Part shown: in pieces, positions 616 to 37,071 of the stretch | How positions within the stretch are numbered: the stretch's first letter is position 1 | Layout: each line of letters begins with the position of its first letter | Origin: Escherichia coli | Lineage (GTDB): Bacteria; Pseudomonadota; Gammaproteobacteria; Enterobacterales; Enterobacteriaceae | Assembly (NCBI GenBank): GCA_025336685.1 | Contig: GCA_025336685.1_4717.1 | Reading direction: 5' to 3' (one strand) | Length of the DNA stretch: 64,000 nucleotides | Notes under the pieces: generated by a model | Databases searched by the model: none | What the model was told of the DNA's origin: nothing | The model's input: the letters and a program-made list of their open reading frames with translations, nothing else | Made by a program: the position numbers and the translations under genes

Positions 616-1221
616 TTAATATCCTGATGGTGTCCAGACCAAAGAGACTCCAGCTATAATCGTAGTACTTCCGGTCGCTACCAGAATTCCTGTTGTTGGA
701 ATATCCGGTCGGGGCGGGTTGAGGTTCTTGTCGGTCGGATGCCATTCGATAGTCTGAGCAACACCATCGATGTACTTGGTATATCGCATGGAGCGGACAA
801 CGTTATCGAAATCGATGCGACGACCGTAATAACAGATGTACTTTTTACCGTTTTCCAGCGTCTCAATACGACGTAACCCAAATCTAGCACGTTCGTCCGT
901 GGTCAAATCGTTACCAACTTCACGCATCACGAAAGGTTTGATTTTCCATGGTGAAAGATCGCTTGCTTCGTGAGCGATCGGCATCGAGGAAGGGATGCCG
1001 TTAGCGTTGCGGATGAATTCGTGACCTTGGTTGCCGATACAGAAGTAACGTACAGCAGGATTACCCTCGGGGTAAATCTTTGATTGAATCTGAAGCTTTT
1101 CGTTCAAGGTGCTGTGTTCTTCCCACGCATGAGGAAGACCGAGCGTAAGGTTCGTTTGTACTTGACCGCCGATAATCGTACGGACGATACGATCGGTAGC
1201 ACGGATTTGTGTAGAAGCCAT
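616..1221 (-). CDS. hypothetical protein (201 aa)
   Basis: ORF track; ATG at 1221; tight spacing with upstream gene. Confidence 0.7.
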   Translation of the reverse strand: MASTQIRATDRIVRTIIGGQVQTNLTLGLPHAWEEHSTLNEKLQIQSKIYPEGNPAVRYFCIGNQGHEFIRNANGIPSSMPIAHEASDLSPWKIKPFVMREVGNDLTTDERARFGLRRIETLENGKKYICYYGRRIDFDNVVRSMRYTKYIDGVAQTIEWHPTDKNLNPPRPDIPTTGILVATGSTTIIAGVSLVWTPSGY

Positions 1222-1237
1222 GTCTTTTCCTATTTAA

Positions 1238-2089
1238 TCAGTTATATTGCATCAACAGGATACCGCCGTAGTTCGTGCAGTAATCTTGGCTAAGCGTAAC
1301 GATAACAGCGTTAGCGAACGCAGGGTTAACAGGATAACCCTGTGCGATAAGTTCTGTTGTTTTACCGGTTGCGAGTACGGTAGCCCCGTAAAGGTTGTTT
1401 TCGTCTTCACGACCGTTATAAACCCATGGGGTTGGCGCAACGTTGTTGAATAAGCTAACCATTGCGCTTAGGTTACCACCAACCTTTAACCCGGCAAGAT
1501 CGGAACGGATTGCTGTGCAGTCTATAGCGTAACTGTAGACCAACGCTTGGATACGATTTGCGGTGTAGTACGGGAAATTGAGACCGGCCATCACCGTGGT
1601 CTTCATCATCCCCGCAATATCGCGCGCGCTATCGAGGAGGTAGAATGTAACACTTCCCGTCCAAGCCAATCCGGTTGTTTTCAATTCTACGACATGAGGG
1701 AATGGGTATTCATTCCCTCGAACAATCGGAGAATCGACGCAGCTATCCCGATCGATAACGATTCCGTACGTCGATTGGATCAGAGGGATAAGATCGTGCG
1801 TTGTTTTAACCCCGGCGTCGATAGCAAGCTTCGGTTCCATTCCCAAGAAGAAGTCTTGGATAGGGATACGATCGTACCACACGTAGCTGCTTTCACGGTA
1901 TTGTGCTGGCGTTACTGTTGCCGAAGGCGATACCTTAGCGCGGGTGTTCCGTTTATACGCATGGTTTCCGTTTTCAGCAGCATCCGTGATCTCAAGCGCA
2001 TCGAAGTTAAAGTCGAAGTCAGGATTGGCAGCCTGAATAAGTTCGGCGACCAGTACTTTAGGACTTTTGTTTAACAATTTCTGACTCAT
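1238..2089 (-). CDS. hypothetical protein, tandem paralog family with LAWTGSV motif (283 aa)
   Basis: ATG with AGGAA SD; shares LAWTGSV and C-terminal Y..G.P.. segments with the adjacent 2100-3035 gene. Confidence 0.8.
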   Translation of the reverse strand: MSQKLLNKSPKVLVAELIQAANPDFDFNFDALEITDAAENGNHAYKRNTRAKVSPSATVTPAQYRESSYVWYDRIPIQDFFLGMEPKLAIDAGVKTTHDLIPLIQSTYGIVIDRDSCVDSPIVRGNEYPFPHVVELKTTGLAWTGSVTFYLLDSARDIAGMMKTTVMAGLNFPYYTANRIQALVYSYAIDCTAIRSDLAGLKVGGNLSAMVSLFNNVAPTPWVYNGREDENNLYGATVLATGKTTELIAQGYPVNPAFANAVIVTLSQDYCTNYGGILLMQYN

Positions 2090-2099
2090 TGTTTATTCC

Positions 2100-3035
2100 T
2101 TAGCCTTGTTCTTCTGGAGAACGACCCTGGAGGCTTGCGGTATGTCCGTCGACGTTGTAATAGAAAATCAATGGACCGCCGACAGCAGTACAGTAGTTTT
2201 CATCCAGACTGATCTCGATACCGTATTGGTAACCTGCTCGTGCTGGAATACGTCCGCCTAACTCGCCGTTGAAAGCCACTTTAGCGTTATACAGGTTATA
2301 CGGTGCGATGTTGTCGTCTAATACCCAACGATCGGCGGTCATTTCAGCCAGAAGATCGGCGACCACCACATCGCTAATGACCGTACCTGTTACCAGCGAA
2401 GCCAGCAACTCACCGTAATCGGAAGTATCACGACTGTAGCTGTAGATTTCACCGCTAGCGCGTACGCCTTGTCCGAAGAACTTAAGACCATCAAGCTCTT
2501 TGATTGCGATAATATCATCAAGATTCGGTACACGCGATTTCATCAAGATACGAACACTTCCCGTCCAAGCCAGGCAATCAGATACGACACGGAGCAATTG
2601 TCCGTTAACGGTATCCCAGTTAAGTTCGTCGTTGACAATTTCTTCTGCGGTAAGGCCGAGACCGAAACGTTCTTTGATGATAGGCCAGATATCACGCATC
2701 TTGGTGGCATCTGGTGCATCGATAAGAATAGGTGCTACGTTACGTAGATACGCACCGATGTTAATACGATCGTAATACAGCGTCGTCGAACCTTCGTAAT
2801 CGTCTAACTCGGTAAGCTTAGCGGTTGCCGTTGCCGTAATCTGGGTATCGCGCTCGTAGGCGCTTTGGTTGGTGGTTGGTGTCCCTAAAACCAATAATTC
2901 AGGGGTTAGAACATGTTCTCCGTTCTGAGGTGGGTTATCGTGGTTGATAAGACCATACACGAGATCGGATGAGGGTAAAGAGACGTCGACCGGGTAAAGT
3001 TCGGTGTCGTCAATAGTTGTTACCGTATCACTCAC
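2100..3035 (-). CDS. hypothetical protein, tandem paralog of 1238-2089 (about 311 aa)
   Basis: ORF track gives GTG at 3047 without SD; second GTG at 3035 is preceded by GGAGG at 5 nt, so start placed there. Confidence 0.75.
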   Translation of the reverse strand: MSDTVTTIDDTELYPVDVSLPSSDLVYGLINHDNPPQNGEHVLTPELLVLGTPTTNQSAYERDTQITATATAKLTELDDYEGSTTLYYDRINIGAYLRNVAPILIDAPDATKMRDIWPIIKERFGLGLTAEEIVNDELNWDTVNGQLLRVVSDCLAWTGSVRILMKSRVPNLDDIIAIKELDGLKFFGQGVRASGEIYSYSRDTSDYGELLASLVTGTVISDVVVADLLAEMTADRWVLDDNIAPYNLYNAKVAFNGELGGRIPARAGYQYGIEISLDENYCTAVGGPLIFYYNVDGHTASLQGRSPEEQG

Positions 3036-3094
3036 GGTGACCTCCACGCCAGGAATTAATTAAAAAAGACTTTACGATTTGCTGCGCTATCACG

Positions 3095-5506
3095 TTAAGC
3101 GTCCTCGATAGGCAAAGGTTTAACAATCAAACGATTGAGCGGATTCGATAGACGCATACTGACAGGCTTATACGCAACATGATTCGTCTCACTTAGAACC
3201 GCTGACCTGAAACGACCATTCACCTGTTTGTAGATTGGATCTATCCAAAGACCTTGAAGGTCGCGCTTACGGAAACGTTGTTCGAACGGTTTGATCGGGT
3301 TTATGGTCAGCCCATGCAGCGACTCCGACAGTAAACGCTCACGAAGGTCGCGTGGTGCCCGACCCGGGAACGGTGCAAGCCACAAACCATCGAGTGGGTT
3401 TTTACGGAAACGTAACGAGATGGGATCACTGATGACTTGTGCCCAATATTGCGTACTGAATCGAACCGTTTGGGTATTCTCGTAACCGCTACAGTCACAC
3501 CAGGTTGGTTTCGGAGGTGCTTCCAAACTTTCAACCACCGATTCGCGCCAGTTCGTCATCGGGTTGTTATCATGTACGAATTTGATAACTTCCGTAGCCT
3601 GGTTATCCGTATCATGAACGTTTGCCTGTGCCCAGTCTTCCCACAGTTCTTCACTACCACTTACTAAACTCGAACCAAGACGAACGGCGATTTTGTTTAG
3701 TGGTTTGATTGGATCACTGTTGATTGTCTGGATAAAATGGATGGTGTAACTACTCAATGTCTTAAGCAGCTGCAGCATTCCGTATTGAATATCCTTAAGA
3801 CTGGTGACATCTTCCAAATCTTGACCGGTGGCCTTTGTGAAGATATCGAGAGCCAGAATTCCCGCCTCTTCTTGACTGATTGCGTCAAGCTCCCAATCCA
3901 TCGCTAAGAACCATTCCTTGTAAAGCTGCCCAATACCGAAGTCGACACCAACATCCATGTAAAAGTTTTCAACGATGGCTTCAGCCATACCTCGAGCTTG
4001 ATAATGCTCTTGGAGCTGGTACATGAACTGATGACGACGCCAGCCCTGGTAGATCTCGGTAACGACGTTGAGAAACTCTTCAGTACTGACGACCGGACGC
4101 AATGTTACTTGCTTATCCAAACACCACCAGATCAGTTTATCGGGAATGATAGCGGGATCGGTAATGCTACGGAGATGGTCGAATGTCGGTAGCGTTAACA
4201 CCCTGACATGGTTAGCATGGATCTTAGGTACTTCAATCAGCGTCATGCCCATCGAATAGTTCAGCAAATACAAGAACAGCTTGTATGCATCTTTCATCGA
4301 CATCGTCATGGTATCACCCGTCACCGGGTTGGTTGTCGTTAACCGTGACTGGTACATGCCTATAGCGCTAAGATGAATCCATTCGTTCAGTAGGAAATCA
4401 TACTTAGGATACAATTCACTGTCTGTAAGGTCTTCCGCTTCACTTTCCAACACCTTGGTCGTTAAGGTGTTGTTGTCATGCATCGACATTTTCTCTATCG
4501 TGCGGTTAAGCTCGGTATAATACTCCGCTTCGTTATCCCGCGCTAAAGGGAACTGTTGCTGCATCACGGTGGTGACCTTACGCCTTACCGTGCCGTTGCC
4601 GACGATCTCTTGAAGGTTAAGTGGTTTACGCTCCATGTAAACGGTAGGTTTTAACGTCTGAGGTATCTCGGAAGCGTCTTGTTTGATCGAGAACGCACCG
4701 ATTGGAATTCCACGTTCGGTTAATACCTTTTGAATGAGCTTATCGTAGTTTTCCGTTCTGCCCATGTTTCTTTCAACGTAAGCAATGTTACGATAAAACC
4801 AGAGCATTTGAGATTCGGTCATGTATCGCTCGAATCGATCAAGACCTTGATGGCTTGCCAGATAACTCCAGATATGGAAGCTATGGGCATAATGGGTATG
4901 ACAGTTTTCCCAACGAATACCTTTTATCATCTCAGGTATTTGTGTGAATAGAATGGCGTATAACGCAGGCCAATGAAGCATATCGACGCTTTCATACGCC
5001 GGGTGTTCCCAACGTCTAAAGTAATCATCGATTTCTTGCTGTAAGCGTGGAATAAGATTGGCCTCGCGCGATTCAACCTCTCGTGTATCGTACCAGAGAA
5101 TCTCATGATTGCGTGCCGCAATTGCTTTCTCGATATCGATGGGGTTAAGGATACCCAAGATCAACATACGTTGTTCTGGATACCGCGCAATTAAACGATT
5201 GAAATAATCTCCGCCGTACGCGTATTCCCTTGCTGTCATGCGATGTCGTAACATGTTTTCCTTGGTGAACTCGATCTCTTCGAGCGTATCCAGGGAATTT
5301 ACGGTCATCATTGTCTGACAAGGATGATACTCGCCAGCGAGATTCATGTAGTATAACCACGTGCGTGGGTCGTCCCCGACGGCCATCTGGTAGACTTCGG
5401 AAACCTTGAGGTTTAACCGTTCTGCCGTGATGTCGCTTTTAATAATCAGGGTGTCCGTTAGACGCTGCACGCTTTCCGAATAAAGCTGATAGTCAGTGTT
5501 GGACAC
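3095..5506 (-). CDS. large hypothetical virion-associated protein with C-terminal tandem peptide repeats (about 803 aa)
   Basis: Long ORF; ORF-track start 5575 is TTG without SD; GTG at 5506 preceded by GGAGGA; C-terminus carries repeats RFRKNPLDGLW / RFRKRDLQGLW. Confidence 0.75.
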   Translation of the reverse strand: MSNTDYQLYSESVQRLTDTLIIKSDITAERLNLKVSEVYQMAVGDDPRTWLYYMNLAGEYHPCQTMMTVNSLDTLEEIEFTKENMLRHRMTAREYAYGGDYFNRLIARYPEQRMLILGILNPIDIEKAIAARNHEILWYDTREVESREANLIPRLQQEIDDYFRRWEHPAYESVDMLHWPALYAILFTQIPEMIKGIRWENCHTHYAHSFHIWSYLASHQGLDRFERYMTESQMLWFYRNIAYVERNMGRTENYDKLIQKVLTERGIPIGAFSIKQDASEIPQTLKPTVYMERKPLNLQEIVGNGTVRRKVTTVMQQQFPLARDNEAEYYTELNRTIEKMSMHDNNTLTTKVLESEAEDLTDSELYPKYDFLLNEWIHLSAIGMYQSRLTTTNPVTGDTMTMSMKDAYKLFLYLLNYSMGMTLIEVPKIHANHVRVLTLPTFDHLRSITDPAIIPDKLIWWCLDKQVTLRPVVSTEEFLNVVTEIYQGWRRHQFMYQLQEHYQARGMAEAIVENFYMDVGVDFGIGQLYKEWFLAMDWELDAISQEEAGILALDIFTKATGQDLEDVTSLKDIQYGMLQLLKTLSSYTIHFIQTINSDPIKPLNKIAVRLGSSLVSGSEELWEDWAQANVHDTDNQATEVIKFVHDNNPMTNWRESVVESLEAPPKPTWCDCSGYENTQTVRFSTQYWAQVISDPISLRFRKNPLDGLWLAPFPGRAPRDLRERLLSESLHGLTINPIKPFEQRFRKRDLQGLWIDPIYKQVNGRFRSAVLSETNHVAYKPVSMRLSNPLNRLIVKPLPIEDA

Positions 5507-5533
5507 GATCGGTCCTCCAAGGAGCCAGTGTAA

Positions 5534-8440
5534 ATGAACGATATAAATAAAGGGCGCGTCGCCCTCGAACGTCAAATGAGCAATAATGACGTTGCGAAGG
5601 CACTCATGAACAAATTTGTCGCTCCTGCTCCGCAGTCACGTCTTTATAATACACGTGATGCGGAAGGAGCGAGCGGTCGTTTCGGGTTAGTTGTTCCCGA
5701 CCAAATGACGATGAACACGGTTACGCGTGCGACCGCGACAAACATCGAGGATAATAAAAACATCCTCGAGTTGTTCCCTGAACTTAAACGCGTGATGCAG
5801 ATCTACGTTGCCGCGTTGACGAACCCTAACGATCTTAAGACGGTCGAGATGTTTATCGATAGCGAAGATTTCCCGGGTAGGGTCGCAGAAATCGTTCAGC
5901 CGATGATCGATACCATCGACACGCATTTTAAGAATATCTATAAAATAAAGACGCTTATCCCTCGTATCATCGAAGACGTCTTCTTTATCAAGGGCAGTTA
6001 TAACTTCGTTGTTCTGCCAGAAAGCACGCTCGACCGCGCTATTAATGGTAACGGTCAACTGAAACTTGAAGAATACGGGTTTAGAGACAACCATTTCGCA
6101 AGTTGGGGGCTTTTAGGTAACGACAGTCGCAAACGTCACGAAAATCAATTACCTTCGACGGTCTCGATGGAAGATTATTTCTCGGGCGTTAATGAAACCA
6201 TACCGTACGATCCCGTTGTCCGTATAGACAGCATTAAGTTTACCAATACCCTGCTTCGTGATAAGGACGGTAAATTCATTGAAGCGAAGATCGATATTCC
6301 GGATATGGTTACGGTTGTCGATAACCCAGATATTCTCCGCATGCCTATTTTGCATCAACGTCGAGCAGCGACAGCGGTGCAACGCGCGTTACGCACGAAC
6401 ACGTTAGGAGGTAGTGGTTTGGTAACACTGTCAGGTGATCCAACCCTAACCGCTAACCGACGTGAGCTGTCGCAAGAACAGGTTAACGAGATTTGGAATA
6501 AACTCAACATCCAACGTCACACCAAGGTATCTCCCGTTTACGCGCTGGCAACCCCAGATACGCTTGATCGTCAAAGCGTTGGCCATCCTGGTGTGATGCA
6601 CGTACCACCTGAGGCATTAGAACCCGTACATGCACCAGGTGATCCGGAGAACCATATCGGGTATTTAGTTCAGTTGGATGAGTTTGGTTATCCGGTGCGT
6701 TTGGTTGAGGATGCTGCGTATTACAAGCAGTTGGAAGGTCGGTTGTCGAAGATCACCGCGGATATCGCGGGTACGTCAAGCAACGGCATGGCGAGCGAGA
6801 TGATCGGTGCGGCCAAGAACATGATCCAAGGTACGTCGTGTAATCAAGTAGACATGTCGGCCTTCGTGTCATCGTACGAATCATTGATGCAACGCTACAT
6901 CGTTGAACGAATCGTCAACGGTTATCTTGGTAGTGCGGTGGAGATCGGTGCGACATCATCGTTTTACCTATCGATGCTTGCTCGCAGTCTCGCCCACAAG
7001 CAGACCCGTGTTTTGTTTATTCCTCGAGAGATGGTGACATACATCGCTTATGAATACAACAAATACGGTATTGGTCGTTCACTGCTTGAAAGTACGAAGA
7101 TGATCTCGTCGCAACGAGCCATGCTCATGGTTCAAGAACTGATGGCGAAAATCAAAAGTTCGTTGAACTATACGACGCTAAGTGTAATGCTTGAAGATAC
7201 CGACAGAAACCCGGTCGATACCGTCGAACAGGCACTACATAGTTTCGCTCGCGTCTACCAGTCTGGTTTCCCGTTGGGTGAAACTAACCCAATGGACATC
7301 ATCAACGCATACGAACGAAGCTCGATTCGATTGAAGGTTGAGGGGAATAACCCACGCTTCCCGAAATTGAATACGGACGTCAGCGTTGAGCAGCGTAACT
7401 ATCAGTCTCCTGATAATGAATTGATGGATCGTTACCGTCGTGACCACTTCATGGGTTTGGGAGTTTCTCCAGAGATTATCGATACTTCCTACCAATCTGA
7501 ATTCGCGGCTTCTGTGATTACCGCTAACGCGATGCAAGAGAAGCAGTTCACGGTTTGTCGTGAGGTTATCACGAACGGATTAACTGATCACATCAAGAAG
7601 TACACGGCTTACAGTCCTGTATTGTTGACGTCGCTACGAAACACGGTTCGTGCGAACATGTCTAAGCTCTCCCAAGCACAATTGAAACAGCTTTTTGGTA
7701 GCGATTTCGAAAACGGCGTTATTCGTAACGTTAATGCTTATCAGGAGATCGACGACCAGTCAGCAACAATGGACCTGGATTATTCTAAACCGGAAGTTCA
7801 GGAAGTTATTGCCGATGCTTATGTATCCATGTTCTTAAACAGTCTGCAGGTGCGTTTACCGAACAGCAATGCTCGCCGCCTTGAAGATCAGGTACGTGAA
7901 TATAATCAGTACAAGGAAGCGATTACAGCGCAACTTGATGATTATTTAACGCCTGATTACGTCATGGGTCTGGGTGGGGTTGATGAAACAACACTGCAGA
8001 TGATCCGTGCATGCATTATTGGTACCGCGATGCGTACATGGGCAAAAGAGAACAACTTCAATCAGGAGCTGGCTGATCTCTTCAGTCTCGACGATAAGAA
8101 GAATGCCGTGCAAGATTGGAAACGTGCATCCATGGAACATATTGAAATCATGGGTAAATGCATGGGTGATTTTGCATTGTATATTCAGAATCTGACGAAG
8201 AAGATTGAAGAGAAGATGGGAGATCAAGCACAGGACGGCAGCGTTTCATCTGATGGTTCTTGGTCGTCTGATTCAAGTAGTGATACCGGTTCTTCTGATG
8301 ACTTTGGCGGTGATGATTTCGGGGATACCGATTTCGATACCGAAACGATGGAGGAAACCTCAACAGAGGAGACAACCACGTCTGAGGATACGACTACCGA
8401 TACAACGTCAGAAGACGAGACTTCAGGTGATATTGTCTAA
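5534..8440 (+). CDS. large hypothetical protein with acidic S/T/D/E-rich C-terminal tail (968 aa)
   Basis: ATG at 5534 with GGAG SD 9 nt upstream; 2.9 kb ORF; last ~70 aa low-complexity acidic. Confidence 0.85.
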   Translation: MNDINKGRVALERQMSNNDVAKALMNKFVAPAPQSRLYNTRDAEGASGRFGLVVPDQMTMNTVTRATATNIEDNKNILELFPELKRVMQIYVAALTNPNDLKTVEMFIDSEDFPGRVAEIVQPMIDTIDTHFKNIYKIKTLIPRIIEDVFFIKGSYNFVVLPESTLDRAINGNGQLKLEEYGFRDNHFASWGLLGNDSRKRHENQLPSTVSMEDYFSGVNETIPYDPVVRIDSIKFTNTLLRDKDGKFIEAKIDIPDMVTVVDNPDILRMPILHQRRAATAVQRALRTNTLGGSGLVTLSGDPTLTANRRELSQEQVNEIWNKLNIQRHTKVSPVYALATPDTLDRQSVGHPGVMHVPPEALEPVHAPGDPENHIGYLVQLDEFGYPVRLVEDAAYYKQLEGRLSKITADIAGTSSNGMASEMIGAAKNMIQGTSCNQVDMSAFVSSYESLMQRYIVERIVNGYLGSAVEIGATSSFYLSMLARSLAHKQTRVLFIPREMVTYIAYEYNKYGIGRSLLESTKMISSQRAMLMVQELMAKIKSSLNYTTLSVMLEDTDRNPVDTVEQALHSFARVYQSGFPLGETNPMDIINAYERSSIRLKVEGNNPRFPKLNTDVSVEQRNYQSPDNELMDRYRRDHFMGLGVSPEIIDTSYQSEFAASVITANAMQEKQFTVCREVITNGLTDHIKKYTAYSPVLLTSLRNTVRANMSKLSQAQLKQLFGSDFENGVIRNVNAYQEIDDQSATMDLDYSKPEVQEVIADAYVSMFLNSLQVRLPNSNARRLEDQVREYNQYKEAITAQLDDYLTPDYVMGLGGVDETTLQMIRACIIGTAMRTWAKENNFNQELADLFSLDDKKNAVQDWKRASMEHIEIMGKCMGDFALYIQNLTKKIEEKMGDQAQDGSVSSDGSWSSDSSSDTGSSDDFGGDDFGDTDFDTETMEETSTEETTTSEDTTTDTTSEDETSGDIV

Positions 8441-8469
8441 ACGGACGTAAAAAAATAACACATAGTTAA

Positions 8470-8505
8470 CCTTCTCCCCAACCCGATGAGGGAAGGGGAG
8501 AAGGG
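8470..8505. terminator. GC-rich hairpin between convergent genes (CCTTCTCCCC...GGGGAGAAGG), member of the junction hairpin family
   Basis: Inverted repeat read directly; lies between stop of 5534-8440 (+) and stop of 8517-8798 (-); followed by CTATG. Confidence 0.5.
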
Positions 8506-8516
8506 CTATGCGCTAT

Positions 8517-8798
8517 TTAATTATTTCGAGAGGTTAACCACGATTCAATTGCGGTGAGGTTGCATTTCAGTTCACGCCAACTAGGGTGTGGTGGGATCAC
8601 AGCACCTTTGTCAATTACGGTTAGCTGAACCTGGTATTTCTGTTGCATACGTGCTACCGTATCGCTTACCGAGAGGAAAAGCTGGTAACGTTCGTACGCT
8701 GTCAGTTCGCGGTCCTGATAAACCGCGTAGGTGGCTAACGTAACTTCGCGTAAGTCCTTTGCGTCCACAGAGACGGTGATGAGTTTATATTGACTCAT
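8517..8798 (-). CDS. small hypothetical protein (93 aa)
   Basis: ATG at 8798 with AAGGAAA SD. Confidence 0.6.
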   Translation of the reverse strand: MSQYKLITVSVDAKDLREVTLATYAVYQDRELTAYERYQLFLSVSDTVARMQQKYQVQLTVIDKGAVIPPHPSWRELKCNLTAIESWLTSRNN

Positions 8799-8817
8799 AC
8801 GGTTTCCTTATCGACTA

Positions 8818-8840
8818 GGGTATTGCAAACTACAATACCC
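8818..8840 (-). promoter_or_regulatory. hairpin GGGTATTG-loop-CAATACCC immediately upstream of the SD of 8517-8798
   Basis: 8-bp inverted repeat between stop of 8861-11419 and start of 8517-8798; no U-tract. Confidence 0.3.
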
Positions 8841-8860
8841 GTCATCGGATGATAACTTAA

Positions 8861-11419
8861 TTACTGCTCTTCACGTTCCAACAGATACTCGGAAGCGGTA
8901 ATACCGTTTACCGTACGTACCGCTTTCAGACGAGTATCGTCACTCAGAATCACGGTAACAGACTGCAGACCTTTTACTTTGGTCTCGAAGGTCTTGAATA
9001 CCTGATCCAGCATACGAGCAATGCTTGGGTTGGTTGCAGCCGATGCGTGAGTGTAACCGTTCTGGTTCAGCTTCAGAATCTTGGCGTTGGTTGGTACACG
9101 AAGAACAACATGCGGACGCATTGCGAACACACTGTGGTTAAACCAGTAAGCATCGTTACTATCTTCGTCAGTGACGATGTCTGGATTAACACGCATGTCT
9201 TCGGTAGCCGCACCCGCCAAACGACGTTCGATTTCGTCAGCATCCAGAGAGCCGTCCTTCTCCAGTTCTGCACGATACTCACTCATGGCAACCAGATGAC
9301 GTTCACGATTCGCTGCAGATTTTTCGTGAGCGGCTTTCAGGTAGTCATGCATGTTGTACAGTTCTGCCATGGAAAGACGAATGTTCCACTGACCTTCGCC
9401 GTCACGATTGCAGTAGAGACACTTCAGCATGTTGACCCAGGTGTAGTAGCAATTGGAGAACTCATCTTCAATGAACTTCTGATCCATTTTAAGATCGTGA
9501 ATCAGCCAACCGGACAGTTCTCCGATATCATCAACGAAGCTAGAAATGGTGGTTTCAGAGAAGTTCTTCGGTACGATACGTTTGATCAGCTTGTTAACGT
9601 CTTTGGTCATGCTATCATTCAGGAAATGCCAGATACGCAGAGGAATGACATCACGATACTGTTGCATGATCTGACGATAAGCTTTGATATCGTCGCTACG
9701 ACCTTTATCAATAGACAACGCGTCCAGGAATTCATGGATAGCATCCAGCTCTTTGTCGGTATAGGTTCCCAGATAGGAATTGACCGTGGCAAGGAATGCT
9801 AATGCGTCGTTTTGGTTGACGTCGGTGTTGGTCTGCTGAATGATCGCTACTGCAGCTTTGGTTTCAGCATCCTCAACGCTTGACGCTGCGATTGCGTCGG
9901 TAACAGTAAACAGTTTCATTTCGCGCTGTTCGCCGACAACGATCGGTTCGCGTTGAACCGGTTTGTTAAGACTAACGCGAACAACTTCTGCTTGCGCGAT
10001 ACGATCCAGTTTTACCATTTCCTGCTCCGCCATACGACGAGCGGTCGGATCTGATTCAAGTTCGATGTATTCCACTTCTTCCTCCGTGAGGGATGTAATG
10101 TCAACAATGGTTTCATGAAGAATTCCGTTTTCGTCGATACGTGCTCGACGAGCGAAGTGTCTGAAGTCATACAACGTTGGCCAGCGACAATTAGGCGCAT
10201 AGTCTTTGGCCTTCAGACGCATCTGCATAAATTCTTCATGTTGAACAACACGACCGTAACGCTTAGCATCTTCGGTCGCATCAATTGGATTAACGGTCTT
10301 TGTTACCGTAGCAGAACGAGCCGTACGAATGGGTTCCGGTTTAGTCTGCACTGGTTCAGGTTGAACGGATTTCTGTTGTCCAGCCTTAACATGCCATTCG
10401 GGTTCTTCGTACCGTTCAGCAAATTGCTCGGCTGCTGCAAAGATATCATTGATACCACCAATATCTCCTTCTGGATTCGTCGAATATATCCGTGGTTGCG
10501 GTGCCTCGTAACGCGGCGCTGAGGTAGCAGATGCGTCGTTAACGACAGGATCGTCATCGCCAACATCATACAAACGGTTGAACGCACAATCCTTCGAATC
10601 GATGTACGATGGAGTTTGTGGTTGGATAACCGTCGGTCGAGGCTGTGCGCCGTATCCCGGCATTGTTGGAGCCATACCACGCATAACTGCTGGGTTAGGT
10701 TGGTATTGTGGTTGTGGGTAGGTTCCGCCATACGTGGGATATGCAGGCTGTTGCGGTTGACCGTACCCACCACCAACCATCGCATTTGCTTGCGGTCCAC
10801 GGTAAGTCATCCCCAGTTGCATCACCTGTTGCTTCAGACCGCGGGACTTCTGCGCTATTTGTGCTAGACTCCCACTTTTATTTAGCTGCGTGTACTTATT
10901 CGCGGCTTCCGGGTTAATGCGCGATAATTCAATCGCACGATAATACTCCGGGTATTGATTGGCTTCAAAGAGCCACGTTACAAGGTGATACAGCGCAACT
11001 GTGCTCACAGCAGCAGAGACGATCTGGTCGTTGGACGCATTCTGCGGCATCGGGTTGATGTAAGAGAATACGTTCCAGCAACAGTCTTCAACAAGCGATT
11101 CCATCATCATGTCGTTATTGGTGTAACGTGAGACGAACTCGGTTTGTATTTTATCCTGTTGGGCGAAGTCTTTCAGGACATTGAAGACAGCTTGACGGAT
11201 TTTGACGATCGTCGCTTCTTGGGTGATGAAGTTATAGTTCTGCTGATATGATGGTTGCTGGTACTGTGGTGGTTGATAGGTGTTATTCGGGTATGCGCTG
11301 TACTGCGGTTGCTGGTACTGTTGTTGGCGAACCTGTTCAGCCGCATAATTAATCGTACTCGCATAAGGGTTTTCGTTGTAGCCCATTTGCTGATACATGT
11401 TGTTACTGCCATTATACAT
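8861..11419 (-). CDS. large hypothetical protein with Q/Y/P/G-rich low-complexity regions (852 aa)
   Basis: ATG at 11419; N-terminal 60 aa and an internal segment are QQPQY/GYGQPQ-type low complexity. Confidence 0.85.
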   Translation of the reverse strand: MYNGSNNMYQQMGYNENPYASTINYAAEQVRQQQYQQPQYSAYPNNTYQPPQYQQPSYQQNYNFITQEATIVKIRQAVFNVLKDFAQQDKIQTEFVSRYTNNDMMMESLVEDCCWNVFSYINPMPQNASNDQIVSAAVSTVALYHLVTWLFEANQYPEYYRAIELSRINPEAANKYTQLNKSGSLAQIAQKSRGLKQQVMQLGMTYRGPQANAMVGGGYGQPQQPAYPTYGGTYPQPQYQPNPAVMRGMAPTMPGYGAQPRPTVIQPQTPSYIDSKDCAFNRLYDVGDDDPVVNDASATSAPRYEAPQPRIYSTNPEGDIGGINDIFAAAEQFAERYEEPEWHVKAGQQKSVQPEPVQTKPEPIRTARSATVTKTVNPIDATEDAKRYGRVVQHEEFMQMRLKAKDYAPNCRWPTLYDFRHFARRARIDENGILHETIVDITSLTEEEVEYIELESDPTARRMAEQEMVKLDRIAQAEVVRVSLNKPVQREPIVVGEQREMKLFTVTDAIAASSVEDAETKAAVAIIQQTNTDVNQNDALAFLATVNSYLGTYTDKELDAIHEFLDALSIDKGRSDDIKAYRQIMQQYRDVIPLRIWHFLNDSMTKDVNKLIKRIVPKNFSETTISSFVDDIGELSGWLIHDLKMDQKFIEDEFSNCYYTWVNMLKCLYCNRDGEGQWNIRLSMAELYNMHDYLKAAHEKSAANRERHLVAMSEYRAELEKDGSLDADEIERRLAGAATEDMRVNPDIVTDEDSNDAYWFNHSVFAMRPHVVLRVPTNAKILKLNQNGYTHASAATNPSIARMLDQVFKTFETKVKGLQSVTVILSDDTRLKAVRTVNGITASEYLLEREEQ

Positions 11420-11454
11420 TTCTTACGATCCTTTTTATTTTATTCGGTTATGTG

Positions 11455-13251
11455 TCAATCGATTATGTCACGATCGTTAATTTCTACAATTTCTTCATCG
11501 AATCGACCGACGTCTTTCTTCAAGCCTGCATTTGTTGCTGCAACGTCATTTGCGATTTGTGGGGTAACGATTAACCGACCACGCTCATCGATAGGTGCGT
11601 ACATACTGAACTTCTGACGTCCGGTTGGTTCGGAGTGTGGAAGATTCAGATAGCTTGCACAGAACGGGATGGAACCACTAACCAAACGACTCTCGTCAGC
11701 CAATGCAGCACCGCCTGCGTTTTGGCTCTGGAGAACAACATGCGTGCTCACTTTGAACAGCATGCAATCACCAGGTGACTGAATCGATGTTGCCACTTTC
11801 TCACGTTTATCACGATTGCTCTGGATATTGAGAATCGCTTCCGTTGCAACTTGATTTCGCAACGCCTTCTGTACATCGCGATTGGTCATCTCTTTACGGT
11901 TGTTCTGTCGTTTACCACGTTCCGTGGTTTTAAGATGGAACCCCAGTTTAAAGATGCTTTTACGCACATCCTCCATGACATATTCCAACACCATCAATTC
12001 CTTACCGAACATCGTCGTGGTATCAACACGACTCATTTCGATAGTAACATTGTCAATCAGATACGCCATAAATTCGTAGAAGTCGTCGCAAGGAATATTT
12101 TCCTGTTTGAACTTCTTCTGTTGAATTTCGTCAACGTAAAGATCGAGACTGTCGATGTGGTGGTTTACATCACGCAACAAACGCGCATCCGCATTGTTGT
12201 TATTAAAGATAATCAAACCGAGTAATGTACGCCAATGGTCTGGCGCATTCGCGAACTCTTCAACCGGATAGTCTTCCGGGAAACGATCGTAATAACGGTC
12301 GATGAGATATAAGAACGCACCGACAAGGCCAAGAACAATACGTTCCGTACCTCCACGTCTTACAGCGATTTGAATATCAGGATGTTTATAACGTACAGCG
12401 TTAGCGCTACGGCTTTTACCGCTTTTGCTGATACTAAAGCCTTTAGGAATAACCCCCATGGTGCGATAGATTACCCATTGGTCGCGCGGAAAATCACGTT
12501 CAGCAAGGTTCCGTCCGGTTACGGCTTCGACACCTGCAAAACGTCGGAAACATTCACCCACCCCATACTTCGCAAAGAGATAATGACCCAGTGTGGTTAC
12601 GCTGGTGTGGTTGATGTTGTCACCGTTCACTTTACTTTGTTTGGTAAGATGATAGATTTGCGACCAGGGTAACGACAGATAATGACGATAATCGATACCC
12701 GTTGGTGTATCATTGCTCAGGAACTGATACGGTGTACGTTTAACCGTGATTTTGTCACGCGGAAGCATGATGAACGCCATGTCTTTCGTGTAACTGATTA
12801 CAGGGTCAGCGAGCACCGCACTGAGAATGAAGTTCGCACCACGTAGACGCATTTTACCACCCTGACCTACTGCGGGCAATAGGAGAGGATGTCGGATAAT
12901 GCAGTAGTCCTTTCCCGGCTCACGGCGGTCACCTGATTCCATCGCACCGTACCAGCGGAATTCTAGCATCACCATAAACACGTCGGAAGGTGCAAGGTCG
13001 AAGGTCAGCTTACCGCTATCCTTCCCTTTGGTTTTCTTTCCTCCGCTTAAGTAGTGGAACTGTTCGCGGGCCATACAACGACGTAGGCCATGATACACCA
13101 GATCCTTAGGTAAACTATCTTTGCTGTTCCGCCAAAGACGATCAACATAGGACTCAACATCTTGCATCTTATCGACGACGATGTTGCGTGCTATCTTCTC
13201 GTTCATCTTCGGTGCAAGCTCAGCGACAGCTTTGCAGAATCTAGGATCCAT
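11455..13251 (-). CDS. hypothetical protein (598 aa)
   Basis: ATG at 13251 with AGGAG SD. Confidence 0.85.
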   Translation of the reverse strand: MDPRFCKAVAELAPKMNEKIARNIVVDKMQDVESYVDRLWRNSKDSLPKDLVYHGLRRCMAREQFHYLSGGKKTKGKDSGKLTFDLAPSDVFMVMLEFRWYGAMESGDRREPGKDYCIIRHPLLLPAVGQGGKMRLRGANFILSAVLADPVISYTKDMAFIMLPRDKITVKRTPYQFLSNDTPTGIDYRHYLSLPWSQIYHLTKQSKVNGDNINHTSVTTLGHYLFAKYGVGECFRRFAGVEAVTGRNLAERDFPRDQWVIYRTMGVIPKGFSISKSGKSRSANAVRYKHPDIQIAVRRGGTERIVLGLVGAFLYLIDRYYDRFPEDYPVEEFANAPDHWRTLLGLIIFNNNNADARLLRDVNHHIDSLDLYVDEIQQKKFKQENIPCDDFYEFMAYLIDNVTIEMSRVDTTTMFGKELMVLEYVMEDVRKSIFKLGFHLKTTERGKRQNNRKEMTNRDVQKALRNQVATEAILNIQSNRDKREKVATSIQSPGDCMLFKVSTHVVLQSQNAGGAALADESRLVSGSIPFCASYLNLPHSEPTGRQKFSMYAPIDERGRLIVTPQIANDVAATNAGLKKDVGRFDEEIVEINDRDIID

Positions 13252-13290
13252 TACTCACTCCTTTCAGAAAGTTGCTTAAGCAGATTAAAG

Positions 13291-14724
13291 TTACTTTTTC
13301 GATGACGCCTTCTCAAGAATCTTGAAAAAGGTCATACCTATACCGACAACAGCCGCGGTTATACTCGCAGCGGCTTTCCAAACATCGACGTTACGTTGAC
13401 GTCGTGCTTCTTCCGCTTCACGTTGTCTTTTTGCCTCTTCATCACGTCGACGTATCTCAGCAGCAAACTCGTCATGCTTACGTTTGGCTTCTTCGTCTCG
13501 ACGACGAAGTTCAGCGACGAATTCTTCATGTTTGCGTTTAGCCTCATCATCACGACGTTTTAAATCAGCTTGATAATCTTCGTGTATTTGTCTACGTAGA
13601 TCATCTTGACGTTTCATTTCGGCTTGGTGTTGTTCCATCCTACGTTTTTGTTCGTCTTTAAGCTGATCGAGTTCGGCTTTATGTTGTTCGTCGCGCAGCT
13701 TTGCGTCGGCGCGATGCGCTTCATGCATCTGTGCGATAACTGCCTTGTGTTCATCCGCCATACGTCGCATTTCAGCCATCACCCCTTTAAGGGTTTCTTC
13801 TGACGACTTACGTTCGTAGCTGCGTTGGTCGAAATCATTTTTGTAGGCTTCTTTTTGGATGGGATCGCGCCAATGCAATGCCGATTCACGCGTCGGAAAA
13901 ACATTGTACTTCCACATCTCTTTTTCCAAATCTTCGACCGGTACGAAGATGGAGTCATTATTCCCGAAGGTAACCAACATACCTGGCGCGCCTGCTCCAT
14001 TCGTTGGTTTTATTTCGAACGCTTTCCCCAGCACGTTAACCCATAGGCTATACGGATTATGAAAGTCGGGTGGCGTCCAGTGGATAGTGAGTTGCGTTCC
14101 GAGAATCCGGAAACCCTCTGTCTTTCCTGTTAAACTACGCGCACATGTTGCGATGTAGGGGTGATCAATCCCTTTCGTAACATGGTCTGCGCTTTTGTAT
14201 TCTCCTTTAACTTTTACGATTGCCACGTTGATTTGCGCGACATAAATAGGTTGATTAAAGTTCAACGTGTTGAGGTCAATTTGACATATCTCGTCCAGCG
14301 TATCGTACCAGTCTTGCTGGTCTAATAGACGCGGTATTTTCTCTGTGTTAACGATGCGACGGATATGCGGTTTCCTTATCGCGTAACCTGTACCATTTTT
14401 AACACGGAGTATATCCCGACGTCTACCCGCGTAGACGAAGTTTCTGAATGCACCATTCGCATTAGATACGTCATGGCTGTCAACTATTACAGGACTACGA
14501 AATTTTGAACGTCGTACGATCCTGAATGTATTACTGTCCTCAACTCTACCAGGAATGTACTGGAACATATTGTCGGAGGTGATAACCAACACGGTATGGC
14601 CGGATTCATTAATACATGCCCACCCTAATTCCAGGTCATACAACGGTTCAGCATAACCGTCAATGCGATATGCGTACCATCCCCACGGTTCGAACGCGGT
14701 ATCACATATTGGCATGGAGGGCAT
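13291..14724 (-). CDS. hypothetical protein with C-terminal charged coiled-coil repeats and a terminal hydrophobic helix (477 aa)
   Basis: ATG at 14724 with GGAGGTGA SD; three RRRDEEAKRKHxEFxAE repeats then WKAAASITAAVVGIGMTFFKIL. Confidence 0.85.
   Translation of the reverse strand: MPSMPICDTAFEPWGWYAYRIDGYAEPLYDLELGWACINESGHTVLVITSDNMFQYIPGRVEDSNTFRIVRRSKFRSPVIVDSHDVSNANGAFRNFVYAGRRRDILRVKNGTGYAIRKPHIRRIVNTEKIPRLLDQQDWYDTLDEICQIDLNTLNFNQPIYVAQINVAIVKVKGEYKSADHVTKGIDHPYIATCARSLTGKTEGFRILGTQLTIHWTPPDFHNPYSLWVNVLGKAFEIKPTNGAGAPGMLVTFGNNDSIFVPVEDLEKEMWKYNVFPTRESALHWRDPIQKEAYKNDFDQRSYERKSSEETLKGVMAEMRRMADEHKAVIAQMHEAHRADAKLRDEQHKAELDQLKDEQKRRMEQHQAEMKRQDDLRRQIHEDYQADLKRRDDEAKRKHEEFVAELRRRDEEAKRKHDEFAAEIRRRDEEAKRQREAEEARRQRNVDVWKAAASITAAVVGIGMTFFKILEKASSKK
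13407..13572 (-). repeat. imperfect tandem DNA repeats (about 45-48 bp unit) encoding the charged peptide repeats of 13291-14724
   Basis: Repeated cgtcgacg...ttcttcatg...gcgttt units visible; coordinates approximate. Confidence 0.4.
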
Positions 14725-14874
14725 CGCTCACCTCCATCAGATTGAAAATTATCATGCATAACGCATTTCCCTTTTCTTGTTCTTATCAAACTGACAGCCG
14801 ACGGTTTCCAGTATCGCCCCCAGCGCGAGAACGACCTTACGTGTTGTCTATGCCTTATTAATCGCAGGCTTCTG

Positions 14875-14894
14875 TCACCTAGGTAATGTAAGCG
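14875..14894 (-). promoter_or_regulatory. conserved motif TCACCTAGGTAATGTAAGCG (minus strand TACATTACCTAGGTGA), putative phage promoter
   Basis: One of 4-5 copies of the GGTAATATAG-type motif; about 150 nt upstream of the 13291-14724 start. Confidence 0.35.
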
Positions 14895-14932
14895 TCAAAT
14901 TTTTTCTATTCGCAACGATAAACGGCATAAAT

Positions 14933-14960
14933 CTCCCCCAACCCTTACGGGCTGAGGGAG
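14933..14960 (-). terminator. imperfect GC-rich hairpin (CTCCC..CCC-TTAC-GGG..GGGAG) flanked by CATA/TATG, downstream of the capsid-candidate gene
   Basis: Inverted repeat read directly; same architecture as the other junction hairpins. Confidence 0.4.
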
Positions 14961-15057
14961 GCTGACTTATGTATCACGGTGCCGGATGAATGTCCGCAAT
15001 GAAACCATCCGCAACGTTGTCGTCAAGAATATCATCCAACGAAGCAGCTACGGTAGT

Positions 15058-17280: not shown

Positions 17281-17304
17281 TGAAAGTATCCTTTACAGAA
17301 TTAA

Positions 17305-17314
17305 CTTATATAAG
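17305..17314 (-). promoter_or_regulatory. palindromic CTTATATAAG box about 25 nt upstream of the capsid-candidate start, putative promoter element
   Basis: 10-bp AT-rich palindrome in the 150-nt leader of the most codon-optimised gene. Confidence 0.3.
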
Positions 17315-17429
17315 TCGGTCGATAGACCATAGCGTACACGCGTGCATGCGCCACTATAGTATCAGTAAACACTTACCGTTATTGAGGTCGTGATACAACA
17401 CTAAAAATGCCGCATAACTTTTCCCTACG

Positions 17430-17834
17430 TCACAAACGACGCAGGCGATAATGGATGGAACGATTGGTGCAATATGAACGGAACAGCGGCAATTGCGCAA
17501 CTTCCGCAAGACTCATATTAATTCGCAGGTGTTCAATAACGGCGCTGTAGTTATCAGCAATACGATCGCTCAATAACTCTTCTGCCAATAAAGGAAGACA
17601 ATCGACAACAATCGCGATCACATCCTCATTAACATAACGCACCCGAACACTCAACGGACGTTTGTCTGGGTTGTAAGTTGGATCCGCCAAACGACGTTCA
17701 ATATCACGCGGATAGCTCGTCAGTAAATGGTAATAACCATTGTCATAACGATTGATGTACTCACACAGCACACCAACGTTCTTCTCTGGCGGTAAACCTG
17801 TTTCGTCATAGTGGATACGCAAACATACCACCAA
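17430..17834 (-). CDS. hypothetical protein, C-terminal ORF of a possibly frameshifted gene (134 aa)
   Basis: ORF-track start is TTG; overlaps 17806-18051 in another frame; no in-frame ATG near the 5' end. Confidence 0.45.
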   Translation of the reverse strand: MVVCLRIHYDETGLPPEKNVGVLCEYINRYDNGYYHLLTSYPRDIERRLADPTYNPDKRPLSVRVRYVNEDVIAIVVDCLPLLAEELLSDRIADNYSAVIEHLRINMSLAEVAQLPLFRSYCTNRSIHYRLRRL

Positions 17835-34205: not shown

Positions 34206-34311
34206 TTGGGACTCCTACGTAGGGAAATCTTGGCGGGTGATCATGTCCGCCATTTACCTTCTGAACCGTTGATTCAGAAGTCAAAAGATAACCGGATACC
34301 GGCGTCATAAA

Positions 34312-34343
34312 CCTTCCTCCTTCCCTTACGGGTTGGAGGAAGG
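34312..34343 (-). terminator. junction hairpin CCTTCCTCC-TT-CCC-TTAC-GGG-TTG-GGAGGAAGG
   Basis: Perfect inverted repeat after the stop of 34354-35643; flanked by CATAAA and TTATG. Confidence 0.5.
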
Positions 34344-34353
34344 GATAGGGTGA

Positions 34354-35643: not shown

Positions 35644-35652
35644 GTTAGTTCC

Positions 35653-36969: not shown

Positions 36970-37017
36970 GTGTTGTCTCCAGTAATGATTCAAAAGATAA
37001 ACCTGAGCGGCATAGAA

Positions 37018-37049
37018 CCCTCTCCCAACCCGTAAGGGAAGGGAGAGGG
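37018..37049 (-). terminator. junction hairpin CCCTCTCCC-AA-CCC-GTAA-GGG-AA-GGGAGAGGG
   Basis: Perfect inverted repeat after the stop of the codon-optimised 441-aa gene; flanked by CATAGAA and AATATG. Confidence 0.55.
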
Positions 37050-37071
37050 AATATGTCAGTTTATTAACTGA

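Follow-up and report, generated by a model that had tools for sequence, protein, structure and literature searches.

An ATG-started open reading frame at 5534..8440 on the plus strand of the window (the whole stretch of 64 kb that was analysed) encodes a protein of 968 aa plus a stop codon, ending in ...SGDIV. The gene and its immediate surroundings are as follows.

5520..5524, plus strand: Shine-Dalgarno-like AGGAG, 9 nt before the ATG of the portal gene, read from the sequence
5534..8440, plus strand: portal gene, orthologue of Goslar gp36, from the open reading frame list, PDB, PHROG and nucleotide identity
8470..8504, no strand assigned: G+C-rich hairpin CCTTCTCCCC ... GGGGAGAAGG, separating the portal gene from a convergent 93-aa gene at 8517-8798 on the minus strand

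The hairpin is likely to be a bidirectional terminator; a simple terminator scan passed over it, its loop exceeding 8 nt. The gene had been described in the first-pass annotation as one of the few on the plus strand within the virion block, and this is borne out, as all of the other open reading frames of at least 120 aa from 616 to 17834 are on the minus strand. The portal gene is opposite in strand to both of its flanks in the window and in 12 other phages (Goslar and 11 more), and the gene order around gp036 in Goslar is conserved with the window.

Portal rings form the route for DNA packaging and ejection at the unique vertex of the capsid. The 968-aa protein serves as the portal in a chimallivirus, a nucleus-forming jumbo phage resembling Goslar. 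The comparison with portal proteins, which had been suggested as a check, returned matches over the full length: the 'Portal Protein gp36' of PDB 11ed_J aligned across residues 1-968, PDB 36za aligned to residues 5-921, and PHROG 3004 was matched with E=1.1e-160 (residues 13-962 against profile positions 18-906 of 931). The gene is 94.6% identical at the nucleotide level to Goslar positions 33905-36814, the orthologue being Goslar gp36 (HOV27_gp036), and tblastn gave 98.7% amino acid identity to gp36 over residues 1-900. The phiKZ protein gp129 (PDB 9xpe_M, PHIKZ129) was also homologous (E=2.6e-75). A Pfam scan of the 968-aa portal found no family at E<=0.01, including PF07230 (T4 gp20), which is carried by all of the T4-like homologues. 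A PF22385 match in the neighbouring 852-aa protein was disregarded, as its score was under the cut-off for that family. Homologues were collected by an exhaustive search of cluster representatives, which gave 1212 representatives at E<=1e-3 and superseded a word-indexed search with 8 matches.

The closest known relative, Goslar gp36 (YP_009820721; PDB 11ed and 36za), has the same wing, stem/clip and crown layout, the same gene neighbourhood and essentially the same C-terminal tail, differing by a few D/E/A substitutions and by one G fewer here (FGGDDFG, compared with FGGGDDFG). This G within FGG(G)DDFG is the sole indel relative to the portals of the Goslar cluster. More distantly, phiKZ gp129, PhiPA3 gp148, 201phi2-1 gp214, SPN3US gp81 and RAY gp6 are homologous at 22-28% identity, and their genes show the same strand inversion relative to their flanks. 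All five carry a disordered, strongly acidic tail, most with a G-rich D-F-G or D-L-D, but these tails cannot be aligned with the present one and are not rich in Ser/Thr.

CryoEM has shown the Goslar orthologue to be a dodecamer, a ring at the unique vertex in which wing, stem, clip and crown domains are distinguished (bioRxiv 10.64898/2026.04.21.720040). Residue numbering in the alignment is identical up to residue 925, and the domain boundaries were transferred on that basis; the tail was divided into three zones.

5546..7090, plus strand: wing domain, first part, residues 5-519, boundaries carried over from Goslar gp36 cryoEM
7091..7459, plus strand: stem and clip domains, residues 520-642, boundaries as in Goslar gp36
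7460..7864, plus strand: wing domain, second part, residues 643-777, boundaries as in Goslar gp36
7865..8215, plus strand: crown domain, helical part, residues 778-894, its end set at the last basic residue, K894
8216..8302, plus strand: tail zone 1, S/D/G-rich arm MGDQAQDGSVSSDGSWSSDSSSDTGSSDD, residues 895-923, from composition
8297..8338, plus strand: tail zone 2, D-aromatic-G cluster DDFGGDDFGDTDFD, residues 922-935 (core DDFGGDDFGDTDF, residues 922-934), starting at the end of the cryoEM model
8339..8437, plus strand: tail zone 3, T/E/D-rich distal polyanion ending ...SGDIV, residues 936-968, from composition

In the Goslar paper the model starts at residue 5, the crown comprises residues 778-923 and residue 923 is the last to be modelled; the whole crown domain spans the top of the ring and packs on three adjacent crown domains, and the C-terminal crown lies at the capsid side (top) of a channel of 74-60 Å (bioRxiv 10.64898/2026.04.21.720040). 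The deposited sequence of 36za stops at residue 921. Zone 1 is therefore ordered in the virion, being inside the modelled crown of Goslar gp36, while DFGGDDFGDTDF and the T/E/D-rich end are unseen because the crown was modelled only to ~921-923. Two virion structures exist, and the last ~45 residues of the portal are absent from both. An AF2 model placed the final helix at residues 862-901 with low confidence and residues 902-968 in coil (pLDDT 25-31); as it was built from a 9-sequence alignment and has a mean pLDDT of 46.9, it lends weak support, and only to the coil after ~901. The missing cryoEM density past residue 923 is compatible with disorder and with cleavage alike.

The acidic tail had been noticed in the first-pass annotation, which gave its length as about 70 aa and quoted a segment, S905-V968, of 64 aa. 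The tail is real, but the region of distinct composition starts directly after the last basic residue, K894, and is 74 aa long (residues 895-968). It is devoid of K, R and H and has 16 D and 8 E, giving a net charge of -24, with 41% S/T and 32% D/E. The description of the tail as highly acidic and of low complexity was upheld: no 74-aa window with a net charge of -24 or lower occurred in 2000 composition-preserving shuffles of the whole protein, and the Shannon entropy of the tail is 2.97 bits, compared with a minimum of 3.79 in 74-aa windows elsewhere in the protein. The last 50 aa, at net -19, are the most extreme among the open reading frames of at least 120 aa in the 64-kb window, where the runner-up has -7. 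No tandem repeats were found in the tail-coding DNA (8216-8437), and a recent slippage expansion was rejected as the origin of the tail on this ground. Residue 894 being the last K or R, trypsin would release the tail as a single 74-aa peptide. The virion proteomics that had been proposed as a check would therefore fail with this enzyme, as tryptic mass spectrometry is blind to the tail.

A net-negative C-terminal tail was present in all of the 164 aligned homologues, and in 161 its net charge was -10 or lower (median charge -24; median length 94 aa, range 17-265 aa). In five remote chimallivirus genera the last 74 aa had net charges of -16 to -41. The possibility raised at the outset, that the tail is absent from all homologues, thus does not hold. 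The tails have a median net charge per residue of about -0.31, and 162 of 163 fall below the Uversky boundary, meaning that they are predicted to be disordered. Together with the unmodelled residues past ~921-923 in the Goslar entries, this prediction agrees with the earlier suggestion of a flexible tether. The Ser/Thr richness that had also been pointed out holds in the Goslar clade and is specific to it, as the family median is 15% S/T; it is the D/E richness that is universal.

The property that is kept across the family is charge, as the sequence of the tail itself is not conserved and cannot be aligned family-wide. Even in the sister cluster, the tails are 39-48% identical, compared with 70% for the body of the protein. 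A common layout could nevertheless be recognised, with a G/S/D-rich arm followed by a D-aromatic-G cluster and then an E/D/T/P-rich end. The family equivalent of zone 1 has 24% G, 24% S/T and 19% D, and the distal zone has 22% E and 9-11% P. We found no earlier description of an acidic portal tail in the literature, and the structure papers on Goslar and phiKZ do not discuss it. The protein is therefore already known and structurally solved, and the new part is the undescribed, family-wide acidic tail.

The D-aromatic-G cluster was enriched in the homologue tails at up to 3.5 times the shuffle expectation (2.4-3.5 times, depending on the motif), as listed below; the z-scores overstate independence, since the homologues are phylogenetically related.

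[GD][FWY][GD]: 177 observed, 51 in shuffled tails, z 19
FG: 149 observed, 58.6 in shuffled tails, z 13
DF: 141 observed, 61 in shuffled tails, z 11.5

The cluster follows the crown anchor at a median distance of 38-41 aa. Within the sister cluster, F, L and M interchange in the motif while the pattern is retained. The strict motif is missing from about 15% of the tails, and a few tails are entirely free of aromatic residues. At the last five positions, a hydrophobic residue was only weakly enriched (89 of 163 tails against 70 expected, z about 3). The enrichment of the D-aromatic-G motif speaks against bulk charge alone as the full explanation. The cluster had gone unmentioned in the first-pass annotation.

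All of the 119 T4-like portals had a short acidic C-terminal tip, often ending in ...EDF. The tip of T4 gp20, ...ARFQDPDQEQEDF (…QEQEDF), has a net charge of -8 in its last 30 aa, compared with -24 over 74 aa here, and gp20 itself is a protein of 524 aa that does not undergo proteolytic processing. P22 gp1, in its barrel, and T7 gp8 and lambda gpB also have C-termini that are crown extensions pointing into the capsid, but the portals of T7, lambda and P22 have no acidic tail (last 50 aa net -1 to -3). The C-terminal extension of P22 gp1 is an ordered helical barrel, not a disordered polyanion. T4 gp20 is the closest fold according to the Goslar and phiKZ papers, although the present portal has no PF07230 match. 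A GFP attached to the C-terminus of T4 gp20 sits in the interior of the prohead (PMC10893049), and the T4 crown and wing have been proposed as the parts that packed DNA pushes on (PMC12929629).

The best explanation of these data is, in our view, a chimallivirus portal whose twelve tails form a brush at the mouth of the channel with a docking motif embedded in it, although we hold it tentatively and at somewhat less than an even chance. The identity of the portal is established by the matches above, whereas the brush and the docking are a mechanism that we infer. On the side of the ring that faces the capsid interior, where the DNA channel has its inner mouth, the disordered tail emerges from the last crown helix, and the twelve tails (12 chains of -24, about -290 charges per dodecamer) could act as an electrostatic and entropic brush around this mouth. 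Such a brush could repel packaged DNA as well as the internal head proteins, most of them acidic, and would so keep the crown and the channel entrance clear for packaging and ejection; it may also be part of the surface on which the pressurised DNA pushes. The D-aromatic-G cluster, DDFGGDDFGDTDF here, would be a short motif that docks, as the prohead is assembled, on the crown or on a partner inside the head. Most of the large open reading frames in the window encode net acidic proteins, including the paralogues of 429-446 aa at 34354-38397, which makes charge attraction between the tail and the head proteins of the window unlikely and repulsion plausible; charge complementarity with neighbouring head proteins was rejected for the same reason. 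A tail threading out of the capsid through the channel, to the nuclear shell or the terminase, is also unlikely, given ~45 free residues in Goslar and a length that is not conserved. The PhiPA3 portal binds ChmB, whereas Goslar has no ChmB.

The main rival, which we consider possible but clearly less probable than the brush, is that the tail, chiefly through its D-aromatic-G cluster, carries short linear motifs by which proteins of the head interior are recruited to the portal, or anchored there, while the prohead is being built. On this view the contents of the head would be nucleated by the portal, much as T4 gp20 nucleates the scaffolding core. Candidate partners are the inner vertex-binding complex, the virion RNA polymerase, ejection proteins and core- or scaffold-like proteins. 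The 2.4-3.5-fold excess of the motif over shuffles at a fixed distance from the crown favours this reading, as does the retention of a hydrophobic position while F, L and M are swapped between close relatives, and the conserved acidic ...EDF tip of T4-like portals points the same way. Anchoring of ejection or core proteins by portal extensions has also been a speculation of the SPN3US authors (PMC5694885). Empty Goslar capsids that lack the portal also lack the inner vertex-binding complex (bioRxiv 10.64898/2026.04.21.720040); however, the Goslar paper reads these capsids otherwise, with cargo being loaded along with DNA. The motif is also missing from ~15% of the tails, whereas the charge is universal, most of the head proteins encoded in the window are acidic, and the mature virion shows no C12-symmetric ordering of the motif.

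Another possibility, which we regard as unlikely, is that the tail past residue ~923 or 945 is a propeptide, cut by the prohead protease (after S/A/G-x-E) and acting only in the prohead, as an assembly chaperone, a solubility element or a plug of the empty channel. The portals of SPN3US, phiKZ and 201phi2-1 are processed by this protease (PMC5694885, PMC10052503), and in the Goslar capsid protein the first 157 residues are missing, a stretch that includes GCE150 and SEE153 sites. The cleavages reported for the portals of relatives are all N-terminal, however: those of SPN3US, phiKZ and 201phi2-1 shed a long N-terminal propeptide, whereas Goslar gp36 is modelled from residue 5. Scanning for S/A/G-x-E sites identified only one in the tail, S943-T944-E945, a single weak candidate, 22 residues past the last modelled position. 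The virion structure does not show the tail, but its missing density can be explained by disorder alone, and the tails of the family share no conserved cleavage motif.

It is a little less probable again that the tail has no specific function, being either a tolerated, drifting low-complexity sequence or a mere aid to the charge balance or solubility of the portal monomer. Drift would account for a sequence that cannot be aligned across the family, for lengths of 17 to 265 aa and for an evolution faster than that of the body. It would not account for the sign and size of the charge being kept in 164 of 164 homologues and in five remote genera, for the short acidic form in 119 of 119 T4-like portals, or for the non-random zonal layout and motif, and the portals of T7, lambda and P22 manage without such a tail.

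We also see little likelihood, slightly below that of a functionless tail, that the twelve tails act as a nuclear-pore-like disordered gate holding thousands of internal and ejection proteins in the prohead on its way to the phage nucleus. If this were true, the incoming DNA would push the tails aside, and the tails would help to order the exit of protein and DNA at infection. Its more specific form is marginally more doubtful still, and would have the G-rich FG/DFG segments of the twelve tails fill the unusually wide channel mouth of the empty prohead as a self-plug, a selective barrier that retains internal proteins until the arriving DNA displaces it. The excess of FG (149 against 58.6 in shuffled tails, z=13), the reported channel width of 60-74 Å and the presence in some homologues of 3-5 FG units in a G-rich context, such as GGGFGGAGGGFGGGSDFGGGGAGGNDFG, fit such a plug. 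The present tail, however, has two FG and one FD, and no FG is found in 76 of the 163 family tails. Cohesive nucleoporin FG domains have spacers of low net charge, whereas these tails carry a net charge per residue of about -0.31.

The least probable reading, which develops the suggestions of the first-pass annotation that the tail could mimic nucleic acid or bind cations, is that it mimics nucleic acid and sequesters a DNA-binding protein, as the tails of SSB and T7 gp2.5 do, or serves as a cation store in the head. Its negative charge density is high, its acidic and aromatic composition resembles that of SSB-type tails, and the segment just before it is often basic (18% K/R in the first fifth). 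Across the family, however, that basicity is weak (median net +1 over the first 15 residues), and no DNA-binding protein emerged as a candidate partner. The aromatic cluster lies inside the tail, 35-45 residues before a C-terminus that ends in D-I-V and not in the extreme C-terminal aromatic residue of SSB and gp2.5, and the cations held by twelve tails would be negligible against ~240 kb of DNA.

The chimallivirus portal is the hub of capsid assembly, docking to the phage nucleus, genome packaging and the ejection of DNA and proteins. The part of it that is missing from the structures is a family-wide disordered polyanion with a recurrent D-aromatic-G motif and a short counterpart in T4-like phages. 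The tail is therefore a concrete and cheap genetic target, which bears on the arrangement of internal proteins at the portal and on the means by which the channel is kept free of DNA; if it proves to be dispensable, it would be only a compositional curiosity of a known protein. Within the window, the same cluster had two weak matches in other proteins, at 12313-12669 on the plus strand and 48175-50988 on the minus strand, which are probably due to chance.

The 968-aa protein is a portal. By comparing it with portal proteins, as the first-pass annotation had suggested, a full-length match to the Goslar portal gp36 was obtained, in which PDB 11ed chain J ('Portal Protein gp36', 969 aa) aligned to query residues 1-968. 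The gene shared 94.6% nucleotide identity with gp036 of Escherichia phage vB_EcoM_Goslar and had the same neighbours, and the protein also matched PHROG 3004 (E=1.1e-160) and the phiKZ portal gp129 (PDB 9xpe, E=2.6e-75); a Pfam scan of the portal gave no match. Since it is an almost identical allele of a portal with a solved structure, the object itself is already known.

The last basic residue is K894, and the following 74 residues (895-968) lack K, R and H and contain 16 D and 8 E, giving a net charge of -24, with 41% S/T. The acidic C-terminal tail of about 70 aa described at first pass was confirmed, as the ORF ends in exactly the sequence quoted there and the distinct stretch is 74 aa long. 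Chance falls far short of explaining this composition: in 2000 composition-preserving shuffles of the portal, no 74-aa window reached a net charge of -24 or below, and tail entropy was 2.97 bits vs at least 3.79 in any other portal window. No other ORF of at least 120 aa across the 64-kb window had so extreme a charge in its C-terminal 50 aa (-19 in the portal, -7 in the runner-up). A tandem repeat was looked for in the tail-coding DNA and none was found. The sole other region of the window that matched the tail in acidity was a T/D/E-rich stretch (aa ~280-330, net -21 over 50 aa) of a 1121-aa protein of net charge -76 (28433-31798, -).

In the Goslar virion cryoEM preprint (10.64898/2026.04.21.720040), gp36 is a dodecameric portal with a wing (residues 5-519 and 643-777), a stem and clip (520-642) and a C-terminal crown (778-923), which spans three neighbouring protomers atop a channel 74-60 A wide and is the portal end facing the capsid interior. 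As the crown is given as 778-923, the model ends at residue 923, and PDB 36za was deposited with a sequence of residues 5-921; both end points directly precede DFGGDDFGDTDF. Of the low-complexity tail, roughly the first 28 residues belong to the part of the crown that was modelled, and some 45 at the end are not seen. The word 'acidic' is absent from the preprint, and the portal C-terminus is not discussed in the phiKZ atlas paper. In T4, GFP on the gp20 C-terminus was located in the prohead interior (PMC10893049), and packed DNA has been proposed to press on the crown and wing and so bring about the headful transition (PMC12929629). The tail itself, joined to the crown on the capsid side, is a disordered polyanion.

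An exhaustive phmmer search gave 1212 cluster representatives (50% identity), the best 150 of which were aligned with 8 matches from a word-indexed search and six named portals (phiKZ gp129, PhiPA3 gp148, 201phi2-1 gp214, RAY gp6, SPN3US gp81 and FLC9 gp80). Homologue tails were taken as all residues past the alignment column of query T888, in the last crown helix. Absence of the tail from all homologues, which the first-pass annotation would have taken as a refutation, was not seen: the tail was net-negative in 164/164 (median charge -24), with 161 at -10 or below, and negative charge is universal in the portal family. Median length was 94 aa (range 17-265), and the charge-hydropathy plot classed 162/163 tails as disordered. 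Five remoter portals (OBP, N1M2, Vibrio VP4B, Aeromonas ZPAH34 and an Elvirus) were likewise acidic at the C-terminus, their last 74 aa carrying net charges between -16 and -41. Median D+E was 31% and median S+T only 15%, therefore the S/T richness of Goslar is clade-specific. As the homologue tails resist alignment, conservation is one of property and layout.

The layout was profiled in fifths of normalised tail length. The basic end of the helix makes up the first fifth (K/R 18%), the second is rich in G (24%), S/T (24%) and D (19%), the third has 23% D, 19% G and the aromatic maximum (5.3%), and the last two contain 21-22% E and 9-11% P. Compared with within-tail shuffles, FG was observed 149 times against 58.6 (z 13), DF 141 against 61 (z 11.5), [GD][FWY][GD] 177 against 51 (z 19) and [GD][FWYLMI][GD] 439 against 154 (z 25), these z-scores overstating independence because the tails are related. 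At least one motif unit occurred in 140/164 tails, the rest having mostly near variants (DEFG, DDFS, DEW), and a few of the 164 were without any aromatic residue. The spacing between the crown and the recurrent D-aromatic-G cluster is fixed: the densest cluster begins a median of 41 aa past the anchor (IQR 35-47), at about query residue 929, within DDFGGDDFGDTDF. The microevolution of the tail points the same way. Within the Goslar cluster (body identity 98-99%, tail identity 94-99%), the sole indel of the whole portal is one G in FGG(G)DDFG. The sister cluster has ~70% identity in the body and 39-48% in the tail, with many gaps, and retains the hydrophobic-acidic pattern with residues swapped (GMDDLGLGDL, GGEDDFGMGDLG, GLGGEFSVDGLGG).

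Among other phage portals, net charge over the last 50 aa was -1 in T7 gp8, -3 in lambda gpB, -2 in P22 gp1 and -9 in T4 gp20, which ends in ...EEESKEARFQDPDQEQEDF (L008, the T4 gene 20 locus, 3208-4782). The T4-like portals are the closest fold according to the Goslar (10.64898/2026.04.21.720040) and phiKZ structure papers. All 119 of those compared (P0187-P0306; 51-100% identity to gp20) had a net-negative C-terminus, with a median of -8 over the last 30 aa, and 83/119 carried an aromatic residue among the last three positions, the tip often being ...EDF. No functional description of this short tip was found. Chimallivirus tails thus resemble a greatly enlarged form of a trait that they have in common with T4-like portals.

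We tentatively propose, at somewhat less than even chance, one joint mechanism. Twelve tails, with about -290 charges together, would line the inner mouth of the channel as a brush, both electrostatic and entropic, keeping DNA and acidic internal proteins from adhering to or obstructing the crown, and docking would fall to the D-aromatic-G cluster. A motif-based hub that recruits internal proteins is a less likely explanation, although not mutually exclusive with the brush. Goslar empty capsids without portal also lack the inner vertex-binding complex (10.64898/2026.04.21.720040), which fits, but does not prove, a role of the portal in loading internal proteins. Net acidity prevails among the proteins of the surrounding genes, the three 429-446-aa paralogues at 34354-38397 included, which makes simple charge attraction to the tail unlikely.

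It is improbable that the tail is a propeptide removed by a protease, for which the single protease-type site, STE945, is weak evidence. Tryptic proteomics is blind to tail retention because there is no K/R past residue 894. The SPN3US (gp81), phiKZ and 201phi2-1 portals shed long N-terminal propeptides of up to 254 aa at A/S/G-x-E sites (PMC5694885, PMC10052503), whereas the Goslar-type portal retains its N-terminus (5534-5545 in the window); the model of Goslar gp36 starts at residue 5 (10.64898/2026.04.21.720040). Portal maturation thus differs between these clades. Sites of this type are also found in the capsid protein:

15058-17280, -, major capsid protein orthologue, protease-type sites GCE150 and SEE153

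Both adjoin the N-terminal 157 residues absent from the Goslar MCP model and reported missing in the mature protein (10.64898/2026.04.21.720040).

Neutral low complexity is slightly less probable again; the charge and motif layout recur across the homologues. An FG-like gate or plug, for which the FG enrichment could be cited, is very improbable, and a DNA mimic or cation store is the least probable. The searchable literature gave no description of a polyanionic tail that runs through the family, carries a recurrent motif and has a short counterpart in T4. Recognising the unresolved portal C-terminus as such is the new part, a modest yet testable addition to a known portal.

The portal gene lies amid the following features:

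5507-5533, gap of ~27 nt to the divergent upstream gene
5534..8440, +, portal, ATG start, 968 aa (ORF listing)
8470-8504, G+C-rich hairpin, CCTTCTCCCC / GGGGAGAAGG, between the convergent portal gene and a 93-aa gene (8517-8798, -)

On reading the sequence, AGGAG was found 9 nt 5' of the ATG. The gene had been noted at first pass as one of few plus-strand genes amid the virion block, rightly, since every other ORF of at least 120 aa within 616-17834 is on the minus strand. It is opposite in strand to both neighbours in the window, Goslar and 11 other chimalliviruses (L001-L007, L012-L016). The divergent gene is an orthologue of Goslar gp35, an inner-baseplate wedge protein. The hairpin is probably a bidirectional terminator, overlooked by a simple terminator scan because its loop is long. 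The 852-aa neighbour (8861-11419, -) is Goslar gp038, a hypothetical protein with no PHROG match and only one sub-threshold Pfam match, and its N-terminal start is Q/Y/P/N-rich, of prion-like low complexity (...QQQYQQPQYSAYPNNTYQPPQYQQPSYQQNYNF... and GGGYGQPQQPAYPTYGGTYPQPQYQPNP).

Portals at least 90% identical to the query form a cluster of 404 members (P0001), on 230-250 kb contigs from assemblies filed under Salmonella enterica and E. coli. Sequencing data from enterobacteria thus often contain Goslar-like phages, whether through a carrier state or contamination.
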